Shown: positions 26,471 to 37,458 of the stretch, piece by piece
How the letters are laid out: each line of letters opens with the position of its first letter
Numbering within the stretch: the stretch's first letter is position 1
Assembly (NCBI GenBank): GCA_024280115.1
Contig: JAJRQT010000230.1
Location: 146 to 64,145, forward strand
Source: Bacteroidota bacterium
GTDB taxonomy: Bacteria; Bacteroidota; Bacteroidia; Cytophagales; Cyclobacteriaceae
Direction: 5' to 3'
DNA: 64,000 nucleotides
Program-made: the position numbers and the translations under genes
Notes under the pieces: model-generated
Database searches by the model: none
Told to the model about the DNA's origin: nothing
The model's input: only the letters and a program-made list of their open reading frames with translations

Positions 26471-27295
26471 ATGCAGGAGATTCATATTGTAGATATTAGA
26501 AAGCTTACAGAGATTATCAAATCCAAATATGGGTATGATTTCACAAATTATGCCATCTCCTCTTTAAAAAGACGGATTATAAGGATATTGGAACTCTACA
26601 AGTTTAAAAGTGTAGATGCGCTTGGTAAAAGGATTAGTGAAGACCCCGTATTTTTTGAAGAATTTATTTCTGAAATAACAGTAAACGTTACCGAAATGTT
26701 CCGAGATCCATCTTTTTGGAGGATTCTCCGGGACAAAATACTTCCAAACATACTACTCAACAATAAGAGGATTCGGATATGGCATGCAGGGTGCTCCTCT
26801 GGTGAAGAAGTGTATTCTATGGCGATTTTATTGAAGGAAATGGGGATTCTCGAAAATTCCAAAATAATTGCCACCGATATTGACGACCAGATATTGAAGC
26901 GGGCAAAAAGTGGTGTTTACACCGTTAAAAACATGGAATTGAACGAAAAAAACTATGTAAGATTTAGAGGTGAGAATGAATTAAATAGGTACTTCAAAAT
27001 TAAAAATGGGCTCACATACATGGATAAATCACTTGTGAAGGATGTTTCTTATCGCAAGCAGGACCTTGTCAAAGGTGGTGTGTTCAACAAGTTTGATATT
27101 GTATTGTGTAGAAATGTGATGATTTATTTCAATCAAAACTTACAGAACGATGTATTGAAAAAACTCCATGAAAGCATATTCAAATATGGGTATTTGGCTA
27201 TTGGGTCTAAGGAATCATTGATTTGGAGTGAAATTGCTAACAAGTTTATTGTAGCAAATAACGAAGAAAAAATTTATAAAAAGATAAAAGAGTAA
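26471..27295 (+). CDS. cheR: CheR-type protein-glutamate O-methyltransferase
   Basis: 'ITVNVTEMFRDP', 'RIWHAGCSSGEEVYSMAILL' and 'FDIVLCRNVMIYF'. 274 aa. Confidence 0.85.
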   Translation: MQEIHIVDIRKLTEIIKSKYGYDFTNYAISSLKRRIIRILELYKFKSVDALGKRISEDPVFFEEFISEITVNVTEMFRDPSFWRILRDKILPNILLNNKRIRIWHAGCSSGEEVYSMAILLKEMGILENSKIIATDIDDQILKRAKSGVYTVKNMELNEKNYVRFRGENELNRYFKIKNGLTYMDKSLVKDVSYRKQDLVKGGVFNKFDIVLCRNVMIYFNQNLQNDVLKKLHESIFKYGYLAIGSKESLIWSEIANKFIVANNEEKIYKKIKE

Positions 27296-27318: not shown

Positions 27319-27912
27319 ATGATATTTCAAGGACTACATACTAAATTCAAAGCTATCGTAATTGGAGGCTCAGCTGGAAGTTTTCAGGGCATTACCAGAA
27401 TTCTGTCTCGGGTACCTGAAGATTTTCCTTTGCCGATCATATTGTGCTTGCACAGATTAAAGCACGTTCGCAATGGGTTTATGGAAGCTTTATCAATAAA
27501 AAGTATAAAAAATGTAGTTGAGCCGTATGACAAAGAATCGATTAAACCTGGAAAGGTGTATCTGGCGCCGGCAAACTATCATTTATCAATAGAGCTTGGA
27601 CATTATTTTAGTTTGTCAACCGAAGAAATGGTAAATAATTCGAGACCATCCATCGATATCACACTGGAAACAGGCGCATATACATATAAAAATAAATTGA
27701 TAGGCATTTTGCTATCCGGAGCGAACAAGGATGGTGCAATGGGCATGAAAAATATTAAAGATAGTGGAGGATTTACCGTTGTTCAGGACCCCAGGGAATG
27801 TATGATTAATACAATGCCATCTGCAGCTTTAGAAATGGCTGAAATCGATTATACGTTGAGCATTGATAATATCATAGAGTTATTTTTTGAAATACATAAA
27901 CTGTATAAATAA
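27319..27912 (+). CDS. cheB: CheB-type methylesterase catalytic domain, no receiver domain
   Basis: 'VIGGSAGSFQGITRIL..PEDFPLPIILCLHR' and 'LLSGANKDGAMGMKNIKDSGGFTVVQDP' supply the Ser/His/Asp context. Only 197 aa, so there is no room for a REC domain. Confidence 0.8.
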   Translation: MIFQGLHTKFKAIVIGGSAGSFQGITRILSRVPEDFPLPIILCLHRLKHVRNGFMEALSIKSIKNVVEPYDKESIKPGKVYLAPANYHLSIELGHYFSLSTEEMVNNSRPSIDITLETGAYTYKNKLIGILLSGANKDGAMGMKNIKDSGGFTVVQDPRECMINTMPSAALEMAEIDYTLSIDNIIELFFEIHKLYK

Positions 27913-27915
27913 TTT

Positions 27916-28782
27916 ATGAAATCGTTTTACAACAAGCTAAATGTAACCATCGCAATATCCTTTGTGTTAGGTATGCTGTTTACTGCATTTAACCTTTACA
28001 ATTTACCGGCAGAGCTGAAAAAGATTTCAAGCAAAATAGATTTACTTGTAATAAAAGAATTATCACCTGTATTAAATCAGACTTACCTGATCGTTGGAGT
28101 CACATTGATTTTAGGCCTTGGGGCCATCTTCCTGGCACTCTATCTTTTAAATATTAATAAAACATCTGAGAAAATTGTTTACATCGAAAAAACCGAATCT
28201 CAGAAACAAGAGGAAGACAAGGAAGAGGAAAAAGTTAAAAATGAAGATTTTAACAAGCGCGTTAAAGAGGTGAGAGGGGATATTAAAAAAGCTAAGGATA
28301 AGAAGTCCCGTTATGAGAAGGTGCTGTCAAATCTGTGCATGAAATTAGAGGCCAGTCAGGGCATAATGTATGAGGTGAGCAAAGAAAAAAATAAGAGATT
28401 TTTAAAGCTGCTCGCAACTTTTGCATACAATCTTCCTGACAGTGGAACTATTACCTATGAATTTGGCGAAGGCCTTGCCGGCCAGGTGGCGAAGGAAGGG
28501 AAGAAGATCAATATCAATGATGTTCCGAAAGGCTATATAACCATTGTTTCAGGATTGGGGGCATCTTCACCAAATCACCTGGCGATTTTACCAATAAAAC
28601 AAGGAAATGAGGTAGTTGCTGTAGTTGAGATTGCCTCATTCAAGGAAATTTCGTCCGATGATGAAAAGCTCATAGGTGCAGCTTTAAAACTCGAAGAAGA
28701 ATATCAGGATTTAGAGAGGAAAGCACTTGAAAATACTGAAAAAAGTAAGTTGTCAAAAAACAAGAAGAAACTAGATGTTTAA
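27916..28782 (+). CDS. Membrane-anchored GAF-domain protein
   Basis: Two N-terminal TM helices, a Lys/Glu-rich linker, and a GAF-like C-terminus ('GEGLAGQVAKEGKKININD', 'VVAVVEIASFKE') paralogous to the GAF in the next gene. Its stop overlaps the next start (ATGTTTAA). Confidence 0.7.
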   Translation: MKSFYNKLNVTIAISFVLGMLFTAFNLYNLPAELKKISSKIDLLVIKELSPVLNQTYLIVGVTLILGLGAIFLALYLLNINKTSEKIVYIEKTESQKQEEDKEEEKVKNEDFNKRVKEVRGDIKKAKDKKSRYEKVLSNLCMKLEASQGIMYEVSKEKNKRFLKLLATFAYNLPDSGTITYEFGEGLAGQVAKEGKKININDVPKGYITIVSGLGASSPNHLAILPIKQGNEVVAVVEIASFKEISSDDEKLIGAALKLEEEYQDLERKALENTEKSKLSKNKKKLDV

Positions 28783-31700
28783 GAATATTAGCATAAGAGG
28801 TAAGTTAACAACCCTGATTCTATTTCTTGTAGTTGTTACAATTTGCACAGCGGGATATATATCATATTCCATCAGGAAAAATATGTTGCAGGAGAAATAT
28901 CTTCACAATCTCAGCGCTCTTGTAGATGTAAAAACGAGTAAGATCCAGACTTTTATATCTCAGGCAAAGTCTGAAATAAACTTAATTTCAAATCTTGAAG
29001 TTTTTCAGTTGATTGGAAATGTAAGCGAAGAAAACGATTCTGTGGAAATGGACATGGGTGAATCGAACATGTCGCTTGAAGATGAACCTAAGGACTTAAC
29101 AGAAGCAGAAAATACTTTAAGAAGTATTCAAAAATCTACCGGAGTAGTAAAGATTATCATAACTGACCAAAATGGTGAAATCATTTTAAACACCAATTCA
29201 GGAGAATCATTAAACATCAAACAGGAAATAAAAACGATTGACAACGATTTCATCACAAATGCACAGACTGGAACATCTTTTAGTCATATATATAAGGTTG
29301 ACGAAAATTATTTGATTTCAGTAGGTGCGCCAATTGGCAGTATAGAAACAGGTAATACCCTATGCTTCATAATCTTTAATATCAATTCCATTTACGAAGA
29401 TTTGGCACACGATATGGGATTGGGCGAATCAGTTGAGGTGATAGTTGCGCAAAAAAGGCAAGATATCGCACTGTTTTTAAACCCACTGAAATCTGATGAA
29501 AATTCTGCACTTAACCGGGCGGTTACTATCGGGAGCAAGGAAGGAGTTGCCATTCAACTGGCTGTAGAGGGCAATGAAGGGATGGGTCATTCCGTGGATT
29601 ACAGAAATGTTGAAACATTATCTAAGTGGAGTTTTATACCCGAAGTTAACTGGGGAATTGAAGCAAAAATTGATCAGGCAGAAATAAATCAACAAGCATT
29701 TATTGTGGTGAGAAAATTTGCATTATGGGGCGGATTGATTTTGGTATTTACCATCATGATCGCTTTCCTGTTTTCTCAATATTTCATCAATCCTCTGCTA
29801 TCCTTAAAAAATTCATTGACCTCAATTTCAAAAGGTGTATTGCCTGAGAAAATAGATAAAAAATATAACGATGAGGTTGGTCAGATGGCTAAAACAACCA
29901 ATGACCTGGCACAAGCTTTAAAACGAACTGCCACCTTTGCGGAGAAAATAGGTAAAGGTGACTTGAAAGCAGACTTCAAACCATCAAGTGATGGAGATAT
30001 GCTTGGTAATGCATTGATTGAAATGCGCAGCAGCCTCATCGAAACTGAACAACAGGATACAGAGCGCAACTGGATTGTTACCGGTGTAGCTGAAATAAGT
30101 GAGATATTAAGATCTCATGATACAATTGATGAGTTGGGCGATGCAGTCATCGCTTACATCACAGAAAAAATTGATGCAATTCAGGGAGCGTTTTATGTAG
30201 TCAATGATGACAACCCGGCTGACAAGTTTATCGAGATGAAGTCTGCTTATGCCTACCATAAGAAAAAATATATGCAGGCTAATTTTAAGTTTGCGGAAGG
30301 GTTAGTAGGGCAAGCAGCAGTAGAAAAGGATTACATACTCCGGACAGAAATTCCAGATGAATATGTATCTGTAACTTCTGGTATATTGGGTGATCAGCGT
30401 CCCACCGGATTACTGATAACTCCACTCATCACTGAAGAAAAAGTATATGGCGTTGTTGAATTTGCCGGATTCCATAGATTTACGGAGAGCCAAATCAAAT
30501 TTGTTCGTGAAATCAGCCTGATCCTTGCCAGAACCATTTTCAACATTAAAGTTAATGAACGTACCAGAAATCTTCTTGAGGAATCTCAGAAAATGAGTAA
30601 CGAACTTCAGGAGCAGCAGGAGGTATTGAGACAAAATGCTGAGGAAATGGCCTCTACCCAGGAAGAGCTGAAAAGAACAAATCAGCGGCTTGAGGATCAG
30701 ATCGAAGAGGTAAACCGCACTCAGAACAGGATGCAATTGTTGCTGGAAAATGCCTCTGAGGTTATTTCTATCTATGAAAAGGAAGGAATTATCAGGTATA
30801 TAAGCCCATCGGTTGAGCGTATTCTCGGATACTCACAAAATGACCTGATTGGCATCAATGATAAAGTTCATGTAAATCCGGAAGGTATAGCAAATTTTGA
30901 ACATATATTCGAGCAGGTGATAGCAAATCCATTTGAATCTGTCACGGTTCAGTATGAATATATGAAGAAAGATGGTGATGCTATATGGCTGGAGGCAACA
31001 GCTACCAATATGCTGTCTGACCCGGCAATTCAGGGAATTATTTTGAATAGCAGGGATATTACGGAAAGACGACGAGCTGAGCGAGAGGAACGGATGAAAT
31101 CAAAAATGCAGGCATTATCTGAAAATTCGCCAGATTTAATTACAAGATTTACAAATGACGGAGAAGTATTCTATATAAATCCAATGATCGAGAGCTATAC
31201 CGGTCATAAGCCTGGTGATCTGCTCAATAGGAAGCTTGTAGAAATTGATGTTGAGGATGTAATAAAACAGGAATGGATTCAACTTCTCGAACAGGTTGAA
31301 TCAGAAAATGAAAAAGTTGCCAAAGAAATGGATTTTCCTTCCATACTCGGCAACCGTGTTATGCAGGTAAATGCCATTCCGGAATATGATGAGGAAAGTA
31401 ATTTAGAATCCGTGTTGGTTGTTTCGCACGATATTACCGATCGAAAACAAATAGAGCTTGAGATTCAATCCAAAAATAGAAAGATCACCGAAAGTATAAA
31501 TTATGCTCAAAGAATTCAGAAAGCTATCCTGCCAAGCAATGAAGTGATTCGCCAGGTACTTCCGGAGTCATTCATATTGTACAAGGCAAGAGATGTGGTG
31601 AGCGGGGACTTTCCATGGTTTATAAAGGTCGGAGACATCATGTATTTTGCAGCAGTTGATTGTACAGGACACGGTGTTCCGGGCGCTCTGATATCACTCA

Positions 31701-32236
31701 TTGGTTACTTCCTGCTCAATGATATTGTGAAAGGAAGAAAGATGAGCGATCCCGGGGAAATACTGGATCAACTAGACAGAAGTGTTACCAAAACACTGAG
31801 GCAAGACTCAGACGACTCAAAAACAAAAGACGGAATGGATATTGCCCTTTGCAAAATTGATTTGAAAAATAATCAGGTTTCATATGCCGGGGCACACAGA
31901 CCATTGTATTTCATGAATCAAGGAGAACTTGTAGAAATCAAGGGTAATAAATTCCCGATTGGGGGTGGTATTTACCGAAATCAAACCAAATTCACCAGTA
32001 CCGTCTTAGATGTGAAAAAGGGTGATTCTATCTTTTTCTGTTCTGATGGATTCCCAGATCAATTTGGTGGTCCTGACAACAGAAAATATGGGCCAAAGCG
32101 ATTGCGAGAGGCAATTGTGAAATATCATAAAAGTTCCATGACTGAAATATATAAGAAAATTGATGACGAATGGACTGAATGGAAAGGAGATCAGAAGCAG
32201 ACAGATGATGTCTTGCTGATTGGAGTAAGGTTTTAA
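28775..32236 (+). CDS. Sensor phosphatase: TM-periplasmic (Cache-like)-TM-HAMP-GAF-coiled coil-PAS-PAS-PP2C/SpoIIE (SiaA/RsbU-like)
   Basis: TM1 is 'LILFLVVVTICTAGYI', followed by a ~290-aa extracytoplasmic region and TM2 'WGGLILVFTIMIAFLF'. The HAMP domain contains 'DEVGQMAKTTNDLAQAL'. The GAF domain contains 'AEGLVGQAAVEKDYI' and 'VYGVVEFAGFHRF'. Two PAS domains follow ('RYISPSVERILGYSQNDLIG', 'FYINPMIESYTGHKPGDLL'). The PP2C domain has 'AVDCTGHGVPGALISL', 'FCSDGFPDQFGG' and 'TDDVLLIGVRF'. Confidence 0.85.
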   Translation: MFKNISIRGKLTTLILFLVVVTICTAGYISYSIRKNMLQEKYLHNLSALVDVKTSKIQTFISQAKSEINLISNLEVFQLIGNVSEENDSVEMDMGESNMSLEDEPKDLTEAENTLRSIQKSTGVVKIIITDQNGEIILNTNSGESLNIKQEIKTIDNDFITNAQTGTSFSHIYKVDENYLISVGAPIGSIETGNTLCFIIFNINSIYEDLAHDMGLGESVEVIVAQKRQDIALFLNPLKSDENSALNRAVTIGSKEGVAIQLAVEGNEGMGHSVDYRNVETLSKWSFIPEVNWGIEAKIDQAEINQQAFIVVRKFALWGGLILVFTIMIAFLFSQYFINPLLSLKNSLTSISKGVLPEKIDKKYNDEVGQMAKTTNDLAQALKRTATFAEKIGKGDLKADFKPSSDGDMLGNALIEMRSSLIETEQQDTERNWIVTGVAEISEILRSHDTIDELGDAVIAYITEKIDAIQGAFYVVNDDNPADKFIEMKSAYAYHKKKYMQANFKFAEGLVGQAAVEKDYILRTEIPDEYVSVTSGILGDQRPTGLLITPLITEEKVYGVVEFAGFHRFTESQIKFVREISLILARTIFNIKVNERTRNLLEESQKMSNELQEQQEVLRQNAEEMASTQEELKRTNQRLEDQIEEVNRTQNRMQLLLENASEVISIYEKEGIIRYISPSVERILGYSQNDLIGINDKVHVNPEGIANFEHIFEQVIANPFESVTVQYEYMKKDGDAIWLEATATNMLSDPAIQGIILNSRDITERRRAEREERMKSKMQALSENSPDLITRFTNDGEVFYINPMIESYTGHKPGDLLNRKLVEIDVEDVIKQEWIQLLEQVESENEKVAKEMDFPSILGNRVMQVNAIPEYDEESNLESVLVVSHDITDRKQIELEIQSKNRKITESINYAQRIQKAILPSNEVIRQVLPESFILYKARDVVSGDFPWFIKVGDIMYFAAVDCTGHGVPGALISLIGYFLLNDIVKGRKMSDPGEILDQLDRSVTKTLRQDSDDSKTKDGMDIALCKIDLKNNQVSYAGAHRPLYFMNQGELVEIKGNKFPIGGGIYRNQTKFTSTVLDVKKGDSIFFCSDGFPDQFGGPDNRKYGPKRLREAIVKYHKSSMTEIYKKIDDEWTEWKGDQKQTDDVLLIGVRF

Positions 32237-32328: not shown

Positions 32329-32883
32329 ATGAGTACGATGAAATATATTTATGACATGCATCAAATGATGCTCAAGAACAACATTATTCTGGTTTACGAG
32401 GGTGAGTTCACCCAGGAAATCACTAAGTCGGTGTTGGCCATGGCCGAGAGGAACATGGATTCGATTGGCGAGGAATCCGGAATAAAAAGAAAAGTGTTTA
32501 ACGTAATGGTGGAATGTCTCCAGAACATTGTAAAGCATGGAGAAGATTATGTATCTGCTGATTTACAAATTAACACCGCAATTTTTATGATAGGGAAACA
32601 ACAGAATTCTTATATCATTACAACCGGCAATCCAATGAAAAATGAACTTGTCGATGGCCTGAAAAGTAAGCTTGACAAAATTAACGGTCTTGATAAAGAT
32701 GGTTTAAAAGCGCTTTATAAAGATATAATTAAAGGCGGATCTGGGTTGACAGATAAAGGTGGCGCCGGACTCGGTTTTGTTGATATGGCAAGGAAATCAG
32801 GCCAAAAACTTGAATATGGATTTGAGCCATTAGGAAACGGCCATACATTCTTCTCTTTGAAAACAACAGTTCCAAGAGGATAA
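32329..32883 (+). CDS. SiaB-family protein kinase (GHKL anti-sigma-kinase-like fold)
   Basis: 'NIILVYEGEFTQEI', 'KRKVFNVMVECLQNIVKHG' (N-box-like) and 'KGGAGLGFVDMARKSG' (G-box). 184 aa. Confidence 0.75.
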   Translation: MSTMKYIYDMHQMMLKNNIILVYEGEFTQEITKSVLAMAERNMDSIGEESGIKRKVFNVMVECLQNIVKHGEDYVSADLQINTAIFMIGKQQNSYIITTGNPMKNELVDGLKSKLDKINGLDKDGLKALYKDIIKGGSGLTDKGGAGLGFVDMARKSGQKLEYGFEPLGNGHTFFSLKTTVPRG

Positions 32884-32914: not shown

Positions 32915-33277
32915 ATGGAAATAATTAATTTAGAAGGAACAGAGGATACTCCAAAAATAATTCTGGATAAAACCAACAAAATTTTTGAAATTTCAGGTAG
33001 ATCTTTACCCGAGGATTCAGCAGAATTTTATCAGCCTGTCCTGGAATGGCTGAATAAATATACTAAAGAGGCATTACCCGAAACCATATTCGATTTTAAA
33101 CTCGAATACTTTAATACAGCTTCGTCAAAATTAATTCTCGATGTATTGACTGTTTTAGAAGACATCGAAAACATTAAAGTACACTGGTACTTCTACGAAG
33201 ATGATGAAGATATGGAAGAAGCCGGAGAAGAATTTTCTGAGCTGGTGGACGTAGAGTTTGAATTAAAACCCTACTAG
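32915..33277 (+). CDS. SiaC-family (DUF1987) regulatory phosphoprotein
   Basis: 'EGTEDTPKIILDKTNKIFEISGRSLPEDSAEFYQPVLEWL' and 'LEYFNTASSKLILDVL', with Thr at residue 68. 120 aa with an acidic C-terminus. Confidence 0.75.
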   Translation: MEIINLEGTEDTPKIILDKTNKIFEISGRSLPEDSAEFYQPVLEWLNKYTKEALPETIFDFKLEYFNTASSKLILDVLTVLEDIENIKVHWYFYEDDEDMEEAGEEFSELVDVEFELKPY

Positions 33278-33387: not shown

Positions 33388-36300
33388 ATGAGTGAAGAAA
33401 TTCTAAAAGCTTTAACCCAGCTTTTTGCAATCATTACGAAGCAGGATGGAGGCGTTACTGAAAAGGAAAGAAATTTCGTAATCAGTATTTTCAAGGAAGA
33501 CCTTGACCATGACTCTATAAAAGAGTATCTGGCTTTGTATGACGATTTTGTTGGATATGGTAAAGAAGTAGAAACTACTAAGAAAAAGAAGCTGACATCT
33601 GTTAGGGATTCAGTAAAAACTCTTGCCATTTGCCGTAAAATCAATAAAACTCTTACTCAAAAACAAAAAATAGTTGTACTTATAAAATTGCTTGAGCTCG
33701 TAAGCTCTGACCGCAATTTTACTTCTCAACGAATGGAAATCATAAATACGGTTTCCGAAGTATTTAACATCGCCAAAGAAGAATATTCTCTGATTGAGGC
33801 ATTTATCTTCCATATTACAGAAGAGGCGCTCGATATAGAAGACCTCATCTATGCAAGAAAGAAATCTGAAATAAATTTTGAAAAGGCAAGGTCAATTAAT
33901 GTATCGATCACCGGTGAATTGCTTTTTTTGAAAATAAAAAGCGTGGACATGTATTTTGTCCGTTACCTGGGAGATGAAGAAATTCTATTAAATGGTTTTG
34001 CCATAAAACCCGGGCTGACCAATCAATTTTCACATGGCAGTACCATTAAAACTCCAAGTGGAGATGCTCTTTATTACAGCGACCTTATCAGGCATTTTCT
34101 TTCTGAAGTCGAGACGGTAAATCTTTCATTCATTGCAAAAGACCTGACGAAAAAATTTCCCAATGGTGCTATTGGGCTTAGAGATATAAATATTTCAGAA
34201 GGCCCTGGGAAACTCATAGGAATTATGGGGGCAAGCGGCGCGGGTAAAACCACCTTGCTCAATGTGCTTTCAGGAATTGACAAACCTACATCTGGTAGTT
34301 TGAAAATCAATGGAGTGGATTTGTTTTCTAATGAAACAGAAAAAATAAAGGGAGTTATAGGATATATTTCCCAGGATGATCTGCTTATTGAAGAGCTCAC
34401 CGTTTATGAAAACCTTTATTACAATGCTAAGCTTTGCTTCGCTGATTTAAATGAGGAGGAGTTGGACAAACGGGTTATGGCGACACTTTCAAACCTTGGA
34501 TTGGATCAGAGGAAAGATTTGAGGGTTGGAAGCGTGCTGGATAAAACCATAAGCGGAGGACAAAGGAAAAGATTAAATATTGCGTTGGAGCTCATCAGGG
34601 AGCCTGCTGTAATGTTTGTCGATGAACCTACCTCAGGACTTTCGTCAAGAGACTCTGAAAATGTAATTGACCTGCTCAAGGAACTTTCCCTAAAGGGCAA
34701 GCTGATATTTGTGGTAATCCACCAGCCCTCGTCAGATATCTACAAGATGTTCGATAAAATGATGATCATGGATGTTGGTGGTTATCCTGTTTATTATGGT
34801 CCGCCTGTAGAAGCTGTTACTTATTTTAAGTCAGCCAGTAACCAGGTAGGGGCAGAAAAAGGTCAATGCCAAACTTGCGGAAACGTAAATCCTGAGCAGA
34901 TATTTAATATCATCGAAGCCAAAGTGGTCGATGAATATGGAGAGTTTACAAACAAAAGAAAGGTCACTCCCATTCAGTGGAAAACGCTCTACAATGAGAA
35001 TTTCGAACAAGCAGAGGTTAAAGAAATAGAAAAGCTTCCTCCGAGGTCTTTAAAAATTCCATCCCGGATAAAACAGTCCATAATATTCGCCAAAAGAGAT
35101 TTGCTTTCCAAGTTGAGCAACAAGCAATACATGTTAATAAATTTGCTCGAAGCTCCGTTGCTGGCGTTTATTTTAGCCTTTTTGATAAGATATAAAAGCG
35201 GGCCTGATGGTCAGTCTTATATATTCAGGTTCAATGAAAATATTCCGGTGTACATCATGATGGCGATTATTATTGCATTGTTCATGGGGCTCACTGTAAG
35301 TGCTGAAGAGATTATAAAGGACAGAAAAATTCTGAAAAGAGAATCTTTTCTGAATTTGAGTCGGAGCAGTTATTTAATTTCAAAAGTACTCATCCTGTTT
35401 GGGCTTTCAGCCATACAAACCATCATTTTCACAATTATTGGGAACCTTATCCTGGAAATTCATGGGATGACCCTCACCTACTGGCTGGTGTTATTTTCCA
35501 TTTCGTGCACAGCAAACGTGATCGGTTTGAATATCTCTTCTGCTTTCAATTCTGCAGTTACGGTTTATATCCTGATTCCTCTTTTAATTATCCCACAAAT
35601 GGTGCTCAGTGGGCTTCTTTTCAGTTTTGACAAACTAAACGAAGTCATAAGCACTAAAGGGAAAGTACCAATAATTGCAGATTTAATGGCGTCAAGGTGG
35701 GGTTATGAGGGAGTTGCAGTGAGGCATTTCATGGAAAATGAATACGAATCAAAATTTTATGAATTTGAAAAGGCAGAGGTTCAGGCTAATTTTAAATCTT
35801 CCTATTGGATAAAAGAACTAAAAAGCCGAATCAACTATGCTGTTGACAACATTAACTCCGATGATCAAGAAAGGCTTCAAAAAGTGAATAGATATTTGGC
35901 CCTTGTAAAATCAGAACTCATTGAAGAAAACGGCTCAAATATGGTTCGGGATATTGATCTGAATATCGCCCTGGATCCGGAAAAGTTCAATGTAGAAATT
36001 GGCAAAGCAATCATGGGGTATCTCGATGTCCTTTTTAAAAAATACCTCAACCAGTATAATTTGGCTGTTCAAAAAAAGGAAAAGCTCATTTATGGTTTTG
36101 AAAACACATTCAAATATGATTTGAGTGAAATGAAAGATAATAGTTATAGTGAAAGTCTTGCAGATTTAGTGAGAAACCTTACAGTAAAAGACCGGGTCAT
36201 TGAATTTAAAGGAAGGCTTTTACAAATAATAGATCCTGTATTTAACGAACCAAAAAATCCAAAGCATTTGCTGGACTACAGGGCTCACTTCTTTGCACCG

Positions 36301-36468
36301 AAAAAGTACTTTCTTGGCTATTATTTTGATACATATTGGTTTAATCTGTCGGTAATATGGGGGATGACCTTACTACTCTATTTGGCTCTATATTATGAAT
36401 GGCTTAGGAAAATAATCGAGTCATTTTCGACTATAGGAAAGAAATTTAATAAGAAGGATTCCAATTAA
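33388..36468 (+). CDS. TerB-like N-terminal domain fused to an ABCG-type (ATPase then ABC-2 permease) transporter
   Basis: 'ITKQDGGVTEKERNFVISIF' is TerB-like. Walker A is 'GASGAGKTTLLNVLSG', the signature is 'ISGGQRKRLNIALEL', Walker B is 'VMFVDEPTSGLS' and the H-loop is 'VIHQPS'. Six C-terminal TM helices and a long helical tail follow. Confidence 0.8.
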   Translation: MSEEILKALTQLFAIITKQDGGVTEKERNFVISIFKEDLDHDSIKEYLALYDDFVGYGKEVETTKKKKLTSVRDSVKTLAICRKINKTLTQKQKIVVLIKLLELVSSDRNFTSQRMEIINTVSEVFNIAKEEYSLIEAFIFHITEEALDIEDLIYARKKSEINFEKARSINVSITGELLFLKIKSVDMYFVRYLGDEEILLNGFAIKPGLTNQFSHGSTIKTPSGDALYYSDLIRHFLSEVETVNLSFIAKDLTKKFPNGAIGLRDINISEGPGKLIGIMGASGAGKTTLLNVLSGIDKPTSGSLKINGVDLFSNETEKIKGVIGYISQDDLLIEELTVYENLYYNAKLCFADLNEEELDKRVMATLSNLGLDQRKDLRVGSVLDKTISGGQRKRLNIALELIREPAVMFVDEPTSGLSSRDSENVIDLLKELSLKGKLIFVVIHQPSSDIYKMFDKMMIMDVGGYPVYYGPPVEAVTYFKSASNQVGAEKGQCQTCGNVNPEQIFNIIEAKVVDEYGEFTNKRKVTPIQWKTLYNENFEQAEVKEIEKLPPRSLKIPSRIKQSIIFAKRDLLSKLSNKQYMLINLLEAPLLAFILAFLIRYKSGPDGQSYIFRFNENIPVYIMMAIIIALFMGLTVSAEEIIKDRKILKRESFLNLSRSSYLISKVLILFGLSAIQTIIFTIIGNLILEIHGMTLTYWLVLFSISCTANVIGLNISSAFNSAVTVYILIPLLIIPQMVLSGLLFSFDKLNEVISTKGKVPIIADLMASRWGYEGVAVRHFMENEYESKFYEFEKAEVQANFKSSYWIKELKSRINYAVDNINSDDQERLQKVNRYLALVKSELIEENGSNMVRDIDLNIALDPEKFNVEIGKAIMGYLDVLFKKYLNQYNLAVQKKEKLIYGFENTFKYDLSEMKDNSYSESLADLVRNLTVKDRVIEFKGRLLQIIDPVFNEPKNPKHLLDYRAHFFAPKKYFLGYYFDTYWFNLSVIWGMTLLLYLALYYEWLRKIIESFSTIGKKFNKKDSN

Positions 36469-36561
36469 ATTATAGGTGTAAGAAAGATCATGTAATTGCT
36501 TGATTTTCAGTTTTATTATACTGTTGAGATTTATATTTTTGTTTTGAATAAATACCATGTC

Positions 36562-37458
36562 ATGAGAAAAATTATTCCTTTATTTTTAGTTCTAATCGTC
36601 TTTGCATGCGGCCCGGGGAAAAAATCCGAAGAGCAGGTATTCTTAGACAGTTTAAACAATCTCACTTTGGATGGACCGATGATCTCTGAGGAAGTTATTT
36701 CAGAAATTATCCAGCAGGTACCATCTCCATTGGAGATCTCTTATTTATTGAAAGATGCAGGTTCTCAGTATGATTTTAACATATTGAATTCACCCGACAA
36801 TGTTTCTAATTACAACAGCAACTTCAGCAAAGCATTAAACCTCGGCATCTATGGGACTGACCTTGGATTTGCTAATATTTATGAAGAGAATCAGGATGCT
36901 ATTCTTTATTTAAATTCTATTAAAGGATTGGCCAATGACTTGAGTATTGGGCAATTTTTTGATTTTGGAACTATTGCAAGGTTAGCTACTAACAGTAAAA
37001 ACCTTGATTCTTTATTGTTGATTACAACCCAAAATTTCAATAGCATCAACGGTTATCTTCAGGAAAATCAGCGTTCTAACTTGAGTGTGCTGATACTAAC
37101 CGGAGGATGGCTCGAAGCACTCCATATCACATGCCAGGTAGCAGAGAAAAACCCTGGAAATGAGAAGCTGATAGAAAAAATCGGTGAGCAGAAAATAATA
37201 CTGGATAACATAAAACTGATGTTGGGTTTTTATACTAAAGATCCATACATCGCTGATCTGCATAAAAATATACTAAACCTCGAAAAGGCCTATGAGCAAA
37301 TCGAGATTATTTATACATATGCCGAACCAACGATGGAAGAGGTGAATGGAATTTTAGTAAATAAAGATAACAGTACCACCACCATCAACATTACAGATGA
37401 AAATGTAAAAACGATCAGGCAGGAGGTAATAAACATCAGGAAAAAGATAATAAGCTAA
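36562..37458 (+). CDS. Lipoprotein, unknown function
   Basis: The start is moved to ATG 36562, giving 'MRKIIPLFLVLIVFACGPGKK' (lipobox). The rest looks helical. Confidence 0.6.
   Translation: MRKIIPLFLVLIVFACGPGKKSEEQVFLDSLNNLTLDGPMISEEVISEIIQQVPSPLEISYLLKDAGSQYDFNILNSPDNVSNYNSNFSKALNLGIYGTDLGFANIYEENQDAILYLNSIKGLANDLSIGQFFDFGTIARLATNSKNLDSLLLITTQNFNSINGYLQENQRSNLSVLILTGGWLEALHITCQVAEKNPGNEKLIEKIGEQKIILDNIKLMLGFYTKDPYIADLHKNILNLEKAYEQIEIIYTYAEPTMEEVNGILVNKDNSTTTINITDENVKTIRQEVINIRKKIIS

Follow-up and report, generated by a model that had tools for sequence, protein, structure and literature searches.

The helix that joins the GAF domain to the first PAS domain of a SiaA-like sensor phosphatase is, on balance, probably a methyl-accepting helix outside the chemoreceptors, and the best candidate substrate of the CheR methyltransferase and CheB methylesterase encoded in the same gene cluster. 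The sensor lies in a 64,000-nucleotide stretch of DNA from a Bacteroidota bacterium of the family Cyclobacteriaceae (GenBank assembly GCA_024280115.1, contig JAJRQT010000230.1, positions 146 to 64,145 of the forward strand). This whole stretch is referred to here as the window, and positions are counted from its first letter. An earlier reading of the window, made from the letters alone (the sequence-only reading), had singled out a coiled coil of this sensor as similar to the methylation segment of methyl-accepting chemotaxis proteins (MCPs), and had proposed it as a plausible CheR/CheB substrate inside the operon. Strict synteny and conserved Glu-Glu pairs strengthen this proposal; on the other side, no homology to MCPs was found at the profile level and the chemoreceptor consensus is half present. 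From the comparisons below, we infer methylation itself, the residues that would be modified, and the effect on the phosphatase.

Motif, spacing, and heptad register of the helix

The forward strand from nucleotide 30560 to 30740 translates to RTRNLLEESQKMSNELQEQQEVLRQNAEEMASTQEELKRTNQRLEDQIEEVNRTQNRMQL, corresponding to residues 596 to 655 of the sensor, between its GAF domain (residues 449 to 585) and its first PAS domain (residues 666 to 764), just as the sequence-only reading had placed it. Within this segment, AEEMASTQEEL (residues 622 to 632, nucleotides 30638 to 30670) is in register with LEETAASMEQL of Tsr, the latter taken from a translation of the Escherichia coli K-12 genome. The motif had been described as off by one residue from the strict spacing; this was an error, because EEMAST-Q-EEL and EETAAS-M-EQL of Tsr are equally spaced. 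Ser627 is the sole departure from Glu-Glu-x-x-Ala-Ser/Thr. Among 81 Cytophagales species, residue 627 is Ala in 79, and it is Ser (TCT, 30653 to 30655) in this genome alone. The hexamer is EEMxAT in 79 of the 81 species and EEMAST in the window, and the classical hexamer, the seven-residue spacing, and the heptad c position are all found together.

One heptad phase of the helix is hydrophobic in 7 of 10 turns (T597, S604, L611, L618, M625, L632, L639, V646, M653, and A660), and an acidic stripe runs along the two preceding phases (EENEEEQENE and REEVEERERN). With this hydrophobic phase assigned to d, each pair has its second Glu at c. The chemoreceptor consensus is [ASTG][ASTG]xx[EQ][EQ]xx[ASTG][ASTG], with the modified residue at heptad c, as given by Alexander and Zhulin and quoted in PMC6829392. 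The placement of the second Glu at c, beside the hydrophobic d stripe, agrees with the register rule given there. An ungapped comparison of the family consensus AEEMAATQEELKRT with LEETAASMEQLTAT of Tsr showed 7 identical residues out of 14, and aligned E624 with E304 and E631 with Q311 of Tsr (Tsr numbers counted from the translation). Both Tsr residues are what we take to be methylation sites. In sequence, spacing, and heptad register, the likeness to the chemoreceptor adaptation motif that had been noticed earlier was borne out.

A coiled coil rich in Glu and Gln could carry such a motif as a generic feature. The pattern [EQ][EQ]xx[ASTG][ASTG] has one match in the sensor versus 1.2 expected in shuffled sequences (probability of at least one match, P = 0.70), which amounts to about one match per protein of such a size. 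The strict form EExx[AS][ST] has a P value of 0.14 over the whole sensor and 0.03 in the coil's own composition, and a pair of EE seven residues from another EE has a P value of 0.09; the motif in the coil is mildly unusual, with P values from 0.03 to 0.18. Searches with the single sequence also gave generic coiled-coil matches only. The bare motif is no more than expected by chance, but its conservation goes beyond chance: the core is essentially invariant over the 81 species, at saturated synonymous sites, and recurs in hundreds of paralogous modules (see below). Because of these conservation data, an origin of the likeness by chance is effectively refuted, and we give it almost no credence.

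Conservation of the helix

More than 2000 homologs of the sensor were found, and 553 relatives in species genomes. In an alignment of 114 full-length homologs, residues 601 to 650 were the most conserved part of the sensor, with a mean consensus frequency of 0.92 to 0.94 versus about 0.85 for the PP2C domain. The search for these 114 homologs was scored on residues 430 to 680, and because such scoring favors the helix region, the analysis was repeated on a second set consisting of 80 species genomes of Cytophagales, found with the full-length alignment. One of the two patterns used in the search for the second set, MQLLLENA, corresponds to residues 653 to 660, so that only the C-terminal part of the helix is biased. 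The 30-residue span from 639 to 668 scored 0.943 in this second set, near the 0.969 of the span containing the PP2C active site, and the helix was among the best conserved stretches of the entire eight-gene cluster.

At the level of single residues, E623, M625, and T628 are kept in 81/81 species, E624 and E631 in 80/81, and A627 and E630 in 79/81. Among the codons of the core, all synonymous codons for Leu, Arg, Ala, and Thr are in use, and synonymous sites are saturated. Invariant residues at saturated synonymous sites reflect purifying selection on the protein, and not a recent spread or an element acting at the DNA level. The sequence-only reading had raised the alternative of a generic coiled coil with no conservation of the Glu pairs among orthologs; the pairs proved to be invariant.

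A CheR/CheB pair in strict synteny with the sensor

When the window proteins were used in tblastn searches of 80 Cytophagales loci, the order CheR-CheB-GAF protein-sensor-SiaB-SiaC-TerB/ABC-orf320 was found in every locus with enough flanking sequence (Table 1). Cluster genes were missing only on contigs truncated at the 5' side (L006, L025, L056, L067, and partly L062). These loci span Roseivirgaceae, Cyclobacteriaceae, Fulvivirga, Marivirga, Cesiribacter, Chryseolinea, Ohtaekwangia, Microscillaceae, and Catalimonadaceae. A shorter phosphatase (about 870 residues) occurs in the same cluster in Bacteroidales, in 3/3 loci examined; the gene order is shared, but CheR is present twice and the number of sensors is higher by one or two.

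The CheR gene lies three genes upstream of the sensor gene, and its product is 61 to 89% identical among the loci, being collinear in all those with an upstream flank. Its nearest solved structure is the Bacillus subtilis-type CheR 5ftw (E value, 8.5e-37), with the S-adenosylmethionine-binding blocks aligned. CheB, with 66 to 83% identity among loci, aligned to Thermotoga maritima CheB 3sft (E value, 1.9e-31), and its catalytic triad is in place: Ser in GGSAG, His in CLHRL, and Asp in GANKDG. The membrane-anchored GAF protein is always found between CheB and the sensor; it is poorly conserved (mean column conservation, 0.48) and has no motif of the EExx[AS][ST] type.

Across the eight cluster proteins, the helix contains the only site of the EExx[AS][ST] type or of the type [EQ][EQ]xx[ASTG][ASTG]. 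The membrane GAF protein, SiaB, SiaC (which has an acidic tail), the TerB-ABC transporter, and orf320 were weighed as alternative substrates and set aside, none of them having a conserved consensus-like site.

The sensor itself, annotated by Pfam matches, carries no HisKA, HATPase, or REC domain, and its output is a PP2C/SpoIIE domain. According to NCBIfam, residues 886 to 1153 are nearest to SiaA at 215 bits, under the equivalog cutoff of 700, so that this assignment applies at the domain level only. In the homolog tables, many sensor orthologs carry a precomputed match to PF28175. Downstream, the TerB-ABC transporter and orf320 (33388 to 37458) are as strictly syntenic as SiaB and SiaC. No GGDEF protein was found in the syntenic block, meaning that the diguanylate cyclase SiaD is absent as an output; the transporter and orf320 may fill its role in the switch.

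Could ordinary chemoreceptors from other parts of the genome be the targets of CheR and CheB, with the two genes being in the operon for coregulation only? Some Cytophagales do have canonical chemosensory hardware, with complete Che clusters and true MCPs. In a locus from Cytophagaceae (L083, 10001 to 21481), the gene order is MCP-CheW-CheY-CheB-CheA, a gene for a 193-residue protein, a gene for a transmembrane-GAF-module-PAS protein, and CheR. There, CheB has a receiver domain, and the MCP is soluble, is a true MCP (PF00015, 128 bits), and contains three copies of the helix module described below. In the cluster studied here, however, CheB lacks the receiver domain that couples to CheA, the collinearity of CheR and CheB with the phosphatase switch extends across two orders, and the window, like the 10 kb around the cluster in 80 species, showed no MCP signaling domain or tip, no CheA, and no CheW. 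We therefore regard a service to distant chemoreceptors as improbable.

Table 1. Positions in the window of the cluster genes and of the elements of the helix
Feature	Coordinates	Strand	Description
CheR-type protein-glutamate O-methyltransferase	26471..27295	+	274 aa; PF01739 149.7 bits, PF03705 38.4 bits
CheB methylesterase catalytic domain	27319..27912	+	197 aa, without receiver domain; PF01339 161.4 bits
Membrane-anchored GAF protein	27916..28782	+	288 aa; PF13185 GAF_2; stop overlaps sensor start
Sensor phosphatase	28775..32236	+	1153-aa open reading frame; transmembrane segment, periplasmic Cache-like region, transmembrane segment, HAMP 333-383, GAF 449-585, helix ~588-662, PAS 666-764, PAS 783-892, PP2C/SpoIIE 957-1153 (Pfam matches)
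GAF-to-PAS helix	30554..30760	+	Residues 594-662; heptad pattern
Invariant core, L618-L632	30626..30670	+	LRQNAEEMxATQEEL; each position except x626 kept in 78-81/81 species
Candidate methyl-accepting pair 1, Glu623-Glu624	30641..30646	+	EEMxAT; single motif match in cluster; E624 at heptad c
Candidate pair 2, Glu630-Glu631	30662..30667	+	AATQEEL; seven residues past pair 1; kept in 79/81 and 80/81 species; equivalent to Tsr E310-Q311 in the ungapped comparison
Candidate pair 3, Glu644-Glu645	30704..30709	+	EEVNRT; heptad register shared with pairs 1 and 2; conservation 0.88 and 1.00
SiaB-family protein kinase	32329..32883	+	NF038262 176 bits versus cutoff 85; PF19788 match; collinear in all loci
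SiaC-family phosphoprotein	32915..33277	+	PF09345 133.5 bits; 69-93% identity among loci
TerB-fused ABC-2 transporter	33388..36468	+	PF05099, PF00005, PF01061; collinear wherever flank suffices, Bacteroidales too
Conserved 320-aa protein (orf320)	36496..37458	+	End of syntenic block; no Pfam match; collinear, 50-88% identity

The helix is a widespread module

When an 82-residue segment containing the helix was searched against 1.8 billion representative proteins, 594 matches were obtained at an E value of ≤1e-3. They fall into two classes, the phosphatase family and proteins in which several module-PAS units come after a GAF domain and no output domain is recognized. A hidden Markov model of the helix found 329 copies in 149 representative proteins, with up to seven copies per protein. 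The consensus of the module, LLxESQQQAEELxAQEEELRQNMEELxATQEEMxR, has four EE[LM] heptads in a row, with EExxAT as the third (A at 81% and T at 87%). The version found in the window is QEVLRQNAEEMASTQEEL, and it has the core ...EE[LM]RQN[MLA]EE[LM]x[AST]TQEE... following a GAF domain, as do copies after GAF or PAS domains elsewhere. We found no published name for this EE[LM]-heptad module of Bacteroidota. Proteins P0127, P0131, P0148, and P0203, of up to 2400 residues, consist of a GAF domain and then many module-PAS units, with no kinase, cyclase, or phosphatase domain. Another layout is that of sensor-HAMP-GAF proteins ending 30 to 60 residues past the module with no other output domain (L108, 8552 to 10162; L141, 3739 to 5310; L167, 7813 to 9204; L168, 7393 to 9237). 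A plasmid search yielded only genes on Cytophagales megaplasmids for GAF proteins ending in the module, with no CheR or CheB nearby.

The association of the module with Che genes was also seen outside the cluster. When 80 metagenomic loci were sampled without bias by the presence of the generic module, CheR/CheB genes were present in the flanks of 5 (L091, L103, L108, L122, and L141), and a sixth locus (L161) had a weak CheB-like match; by our own arithmetic, assuming 1 to 3 cheR genes per 5-Mb genome and 11 kb per locus, about 0.4 loci were expected. Module-bearing sensors were also found directly upstream of CheR in metagenomic loci, and the extra sensors beside CheR in the Bacteroidales clusters all have the module after a GAF domain. 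In L141, a CHASE-like-HAMP-GAF protein ending in the module (3739 to 5310, forward strand) is divergent from a CheB-CheR-PAS-kinase fusion (2 to 3322, reverse strand), the long helix of which has seven EEL heptads, GNEELLSANEELLSGSEELRSLNEELEISKEELQSTVEEL. Repeats of the EEL or NEEL type in such fusions, to which the sequence-only reading had pointed, were seen directly in this protein.

Weighing methylation against an assembly role

Several observations count against the helix being a methylation site, and we gathered them here. The first concerns MCP profiles, where homology to the MCP signaling domain was not supported. PF00015 had no match in the full sensor at an E value of ≤0.01. The excised helix scored 15.6 bits against PF00015, for which the cutoff is 34.6, and ranked this family among ezrin, rootletin, and like coiled-coil families; a search of PDB sequences with the same helix returned coiled-coil noise only. 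When the helix alignment of the 81 species was compared by hhalign with Tsr, Tar, Tap, and two Cytophagales MCPs, the probability was 0.4%, and the aligned stretch lay off the methylation sites, a weak negative in view of the small five-sequence MCP alignment. In a real Cytophagales MCP (P0370), PF00015 covers residues 998 to 1178 and the methylation-type sequences (AGGAQEQAIRT and AEETAAGTQEMASS) are outside. Since PF00015 leaves the methylation helices of this MCP uncovered, the HHpred comparison with this family that had been suggested earlier is uninformative either way.

Other points concern the helix itself. The 10-residue adaptation consensus is half present, with AT after E623-E624 but R619-Q620 before, and with AA before E630-E631 but R634-T635 after; small residues are expected in place of R619-Q620 and R634. 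The candidate Glu residues are never Gln among the orthologs, while MCP methylation sites often switch between E and Q. In an AlphaFold2 model of the full-length monomer, residues 571 to 658 are mostly helical, but the predicted local distance difference test score is below 50 for residues 603 to 660, making the model of the helix unreliable; with such a score, the monomer model is no evidence for or against coiled-coil packing. A search of the literature for the Bacteroidota cluster or for the motif strings gave nothing relevant.

The distribution of the module adds further points, and these also suit a different explanation, namely, that the helix is an unmethylated but conserved signaling or assembly helix, the invariant surface of which would pair with helices of the same module on other proteins or dock a partner, with CheR and CheB acting on another module-bearing protein or another substrate. 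The membrane GAF protein, sensors ending in the module, and multi-PAS proteins would then be the candidate pairing partners. The module is portable and often repeated between PAS domains, up to seven or more times, in proteins without an output domain, a pattern also compatible with a role in structure or assembly alone. About 90% of the module-bearing genes are not beside CheR/CheB, and for two multi-PAS proteins (from Cesiribacter and Fulvivirga), no CheR or CheB was found within 10 kb. Among 79 metagenomic module open reading frames, 20 stop ≤80 residues past the module. In sensors with this layout, the helix may be the sole signaling or docking element, and since it is the only candidate output there, the layout agrees with assembly or partner docking no less well than with modification. 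Finally, in two clusters, L108 (12291 to 14930, NALEMQET) and L091 (13053 to 15170, NAKAMELA), the phosphatase helix lacks the first EE pair and keeps the second. In both loci, another sensor that carries the module is encoded immediately upstream of CheR, and the methyl-accepting role may have shifted between proteins in these two cases.

Against an assembly role alone, pairing between helices depends on conservation at positions a, d, e, and g and does not call for an invariant acidic b/c stripe with EExxAT. In addition, a methyltransferase and an esterase so strictly tied to the operon must have a substrate, and a consensus-like site is absent from all the other cluster proteins. Moreover, assembly and methylation are not exclusive, as the methylation helices of chemoreceptors mediate packing too. 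Weighing both sides, we consider an unmethylated assembly helix, with the pairing partners named above, to be unlikely, though a contender to be taken seriously.

Discussion

Reversible methylation of glutamate is the textbook memory device of bacterial chemotaxis. To our knowledge, glutamate methylation has been treated as almost exclusive to MCPs, with RsbK/RsbM as the one studied exception. If the helix of the sensor phosphatase is a methyl-accepting helix, the cotranscribed CheR would methylate the second Glu of the heptad-phased pairs, that is, E624, E631, and perhaps E645, E610, and E603, and the receiver-less CheB would take the methyl groups off. Methylation would neutralize the acidic b/c stripe beside a weak hydrophobic core, made of Leu or Met at d and polar Asn, Gln, or Thr at a, and so would alter the packing or the rotation of the helix. 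Such a change in packing would reset the strength with which periplasmic, HAMP, and GAF signals reach the PAS-PP2C output. Downstream, this output would set the phospho-switch of SiaB and SiaC and probably also the TerB-ABC transporter. Feedback would have to arise from the state-dependent availability of the substrate, as in chemoreceptors, since CheB has no receiver domain.

Compared with the methylation helices of E. coli Tsr and Tar, the helix of the sensor shares Glu pairs spaced by seven residues and followed by xxA[ST], the second Glu at heptad c, and dedicated CheR and CheB genes. It differs in that the sensor lacks both the MCP signaling domain and the hairpin four-helix bundle, that neither CheA nor CheW is encoded nearby, and that only half of the 10-residue consensus is present. 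Judged from these sequence comparisons, the helix resembles the adaptation helix of chemoreceptors but falls outside the MCP family. The likeness in motif and register would be explained most simply by convergence on recognition by CheR/CheB, or by a relationship too old to detect.

In Bacillus cereus, RsbK has the layout CHASE3-HAMP-GAF-S-helix-kinase-REC, and the CheR-type RsbM, encoded in the same operon and without a paired esterase, methylates the S-helix after the GAF domain, repressing sigma-B; 127 RsbK-like kinases were reported from 10 phyla (PMC4574943). The methylation of RsbK is credited to Chen et al. (2012, Environ Microbiol 14:2788) in PMC12848376. Compared by domain layout only, the two systems have in common a membrane-bound HAMP-GAF sensor followed by a helix, a CheR-type gene alongside, and a partner switch driven by a PP2C phosphatase. 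However, RsbK is a hybrid histidine kinase with an inhibitory receiver, and its PP2C protein (RsbY) is a separate response regulator, whereas in the window sensor and PP2C domain form a single protein. RsbM acts as an orphan methyltransferase, whereas the cluster in the window always comes with CheB, the constant presence of which implies a reversible modification. The switch also differs, being SiaB/SiaC and not RsbV/RsbW/sigma-B, with an ABC transporter in addition. By this analogy, RsbK/RsbM is the closest precedent, and the system in the window would be a new version of the RsbK/RsbM kind.

The cluster also resembles SiaABCD of Pseudomonas aeruginosa (cited in PMC9239204), with a SiaA-like PP2C sensor, a SiaB-family kinase, and SiaC in one operon. 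Unlike SiaABCD, the cluster lacks the SiaD diguanylate cyclase and has the TerB-ABC transporter and the 320-residue protein instead. CheR, CheB, and the membrane GAF protein are encoded ahead of the sensor, and the sensor has the extra GAF domain, helix, and PAS domains. The CheB-CheR fusion kinases, such as that of L141, share with the cluster a long helix with heptad EEL repeats accompanied by CheB and CheR domains, here in the same protein. In those kinases, however, the enzymes are fused to their putative substrate, the output is a histidine kinase, and the repeat is xxNEELx and not the LRQNxEELxATQEE core.

A broader reading, which we offer only tentatively and hold to be rather less probable than not, is that the EE[LM]-heptad helix, about 40 residues long, represents a second class of portable methyl-accepting module, unrelated to the MCP signaling domain. 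Its carriers, hundreds of Bacteroidota sensors, would share one CheR/CheB pair, as a chemotaxis-independent adaptation network feeding a PP2C partner switch and an ABC transporter. In such a possible network, the carriers would include the SiaA-like phosphatase, the multi-PAS proteins without an output domain, and the HAMP-GAF sensors ending in the helix.

For glutamate methylation beyond chemotaxis, the cluster makes a good case: it is widespread and strictly conserved, it encodes both the writer and the eraser, and it occurs in bacteria known for gliding and not for flagellar motility. The assignment of the site is sharp, since E624 and E631 lie in an invariant core of 15 residues, and it is directly testable by mass spectrometry and point mutants. 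If the assignment is true, a pathway unrelated to chemotaxis gains a methylation "memory," and adaptation by methylation would be a general add-on for sensory proteins.

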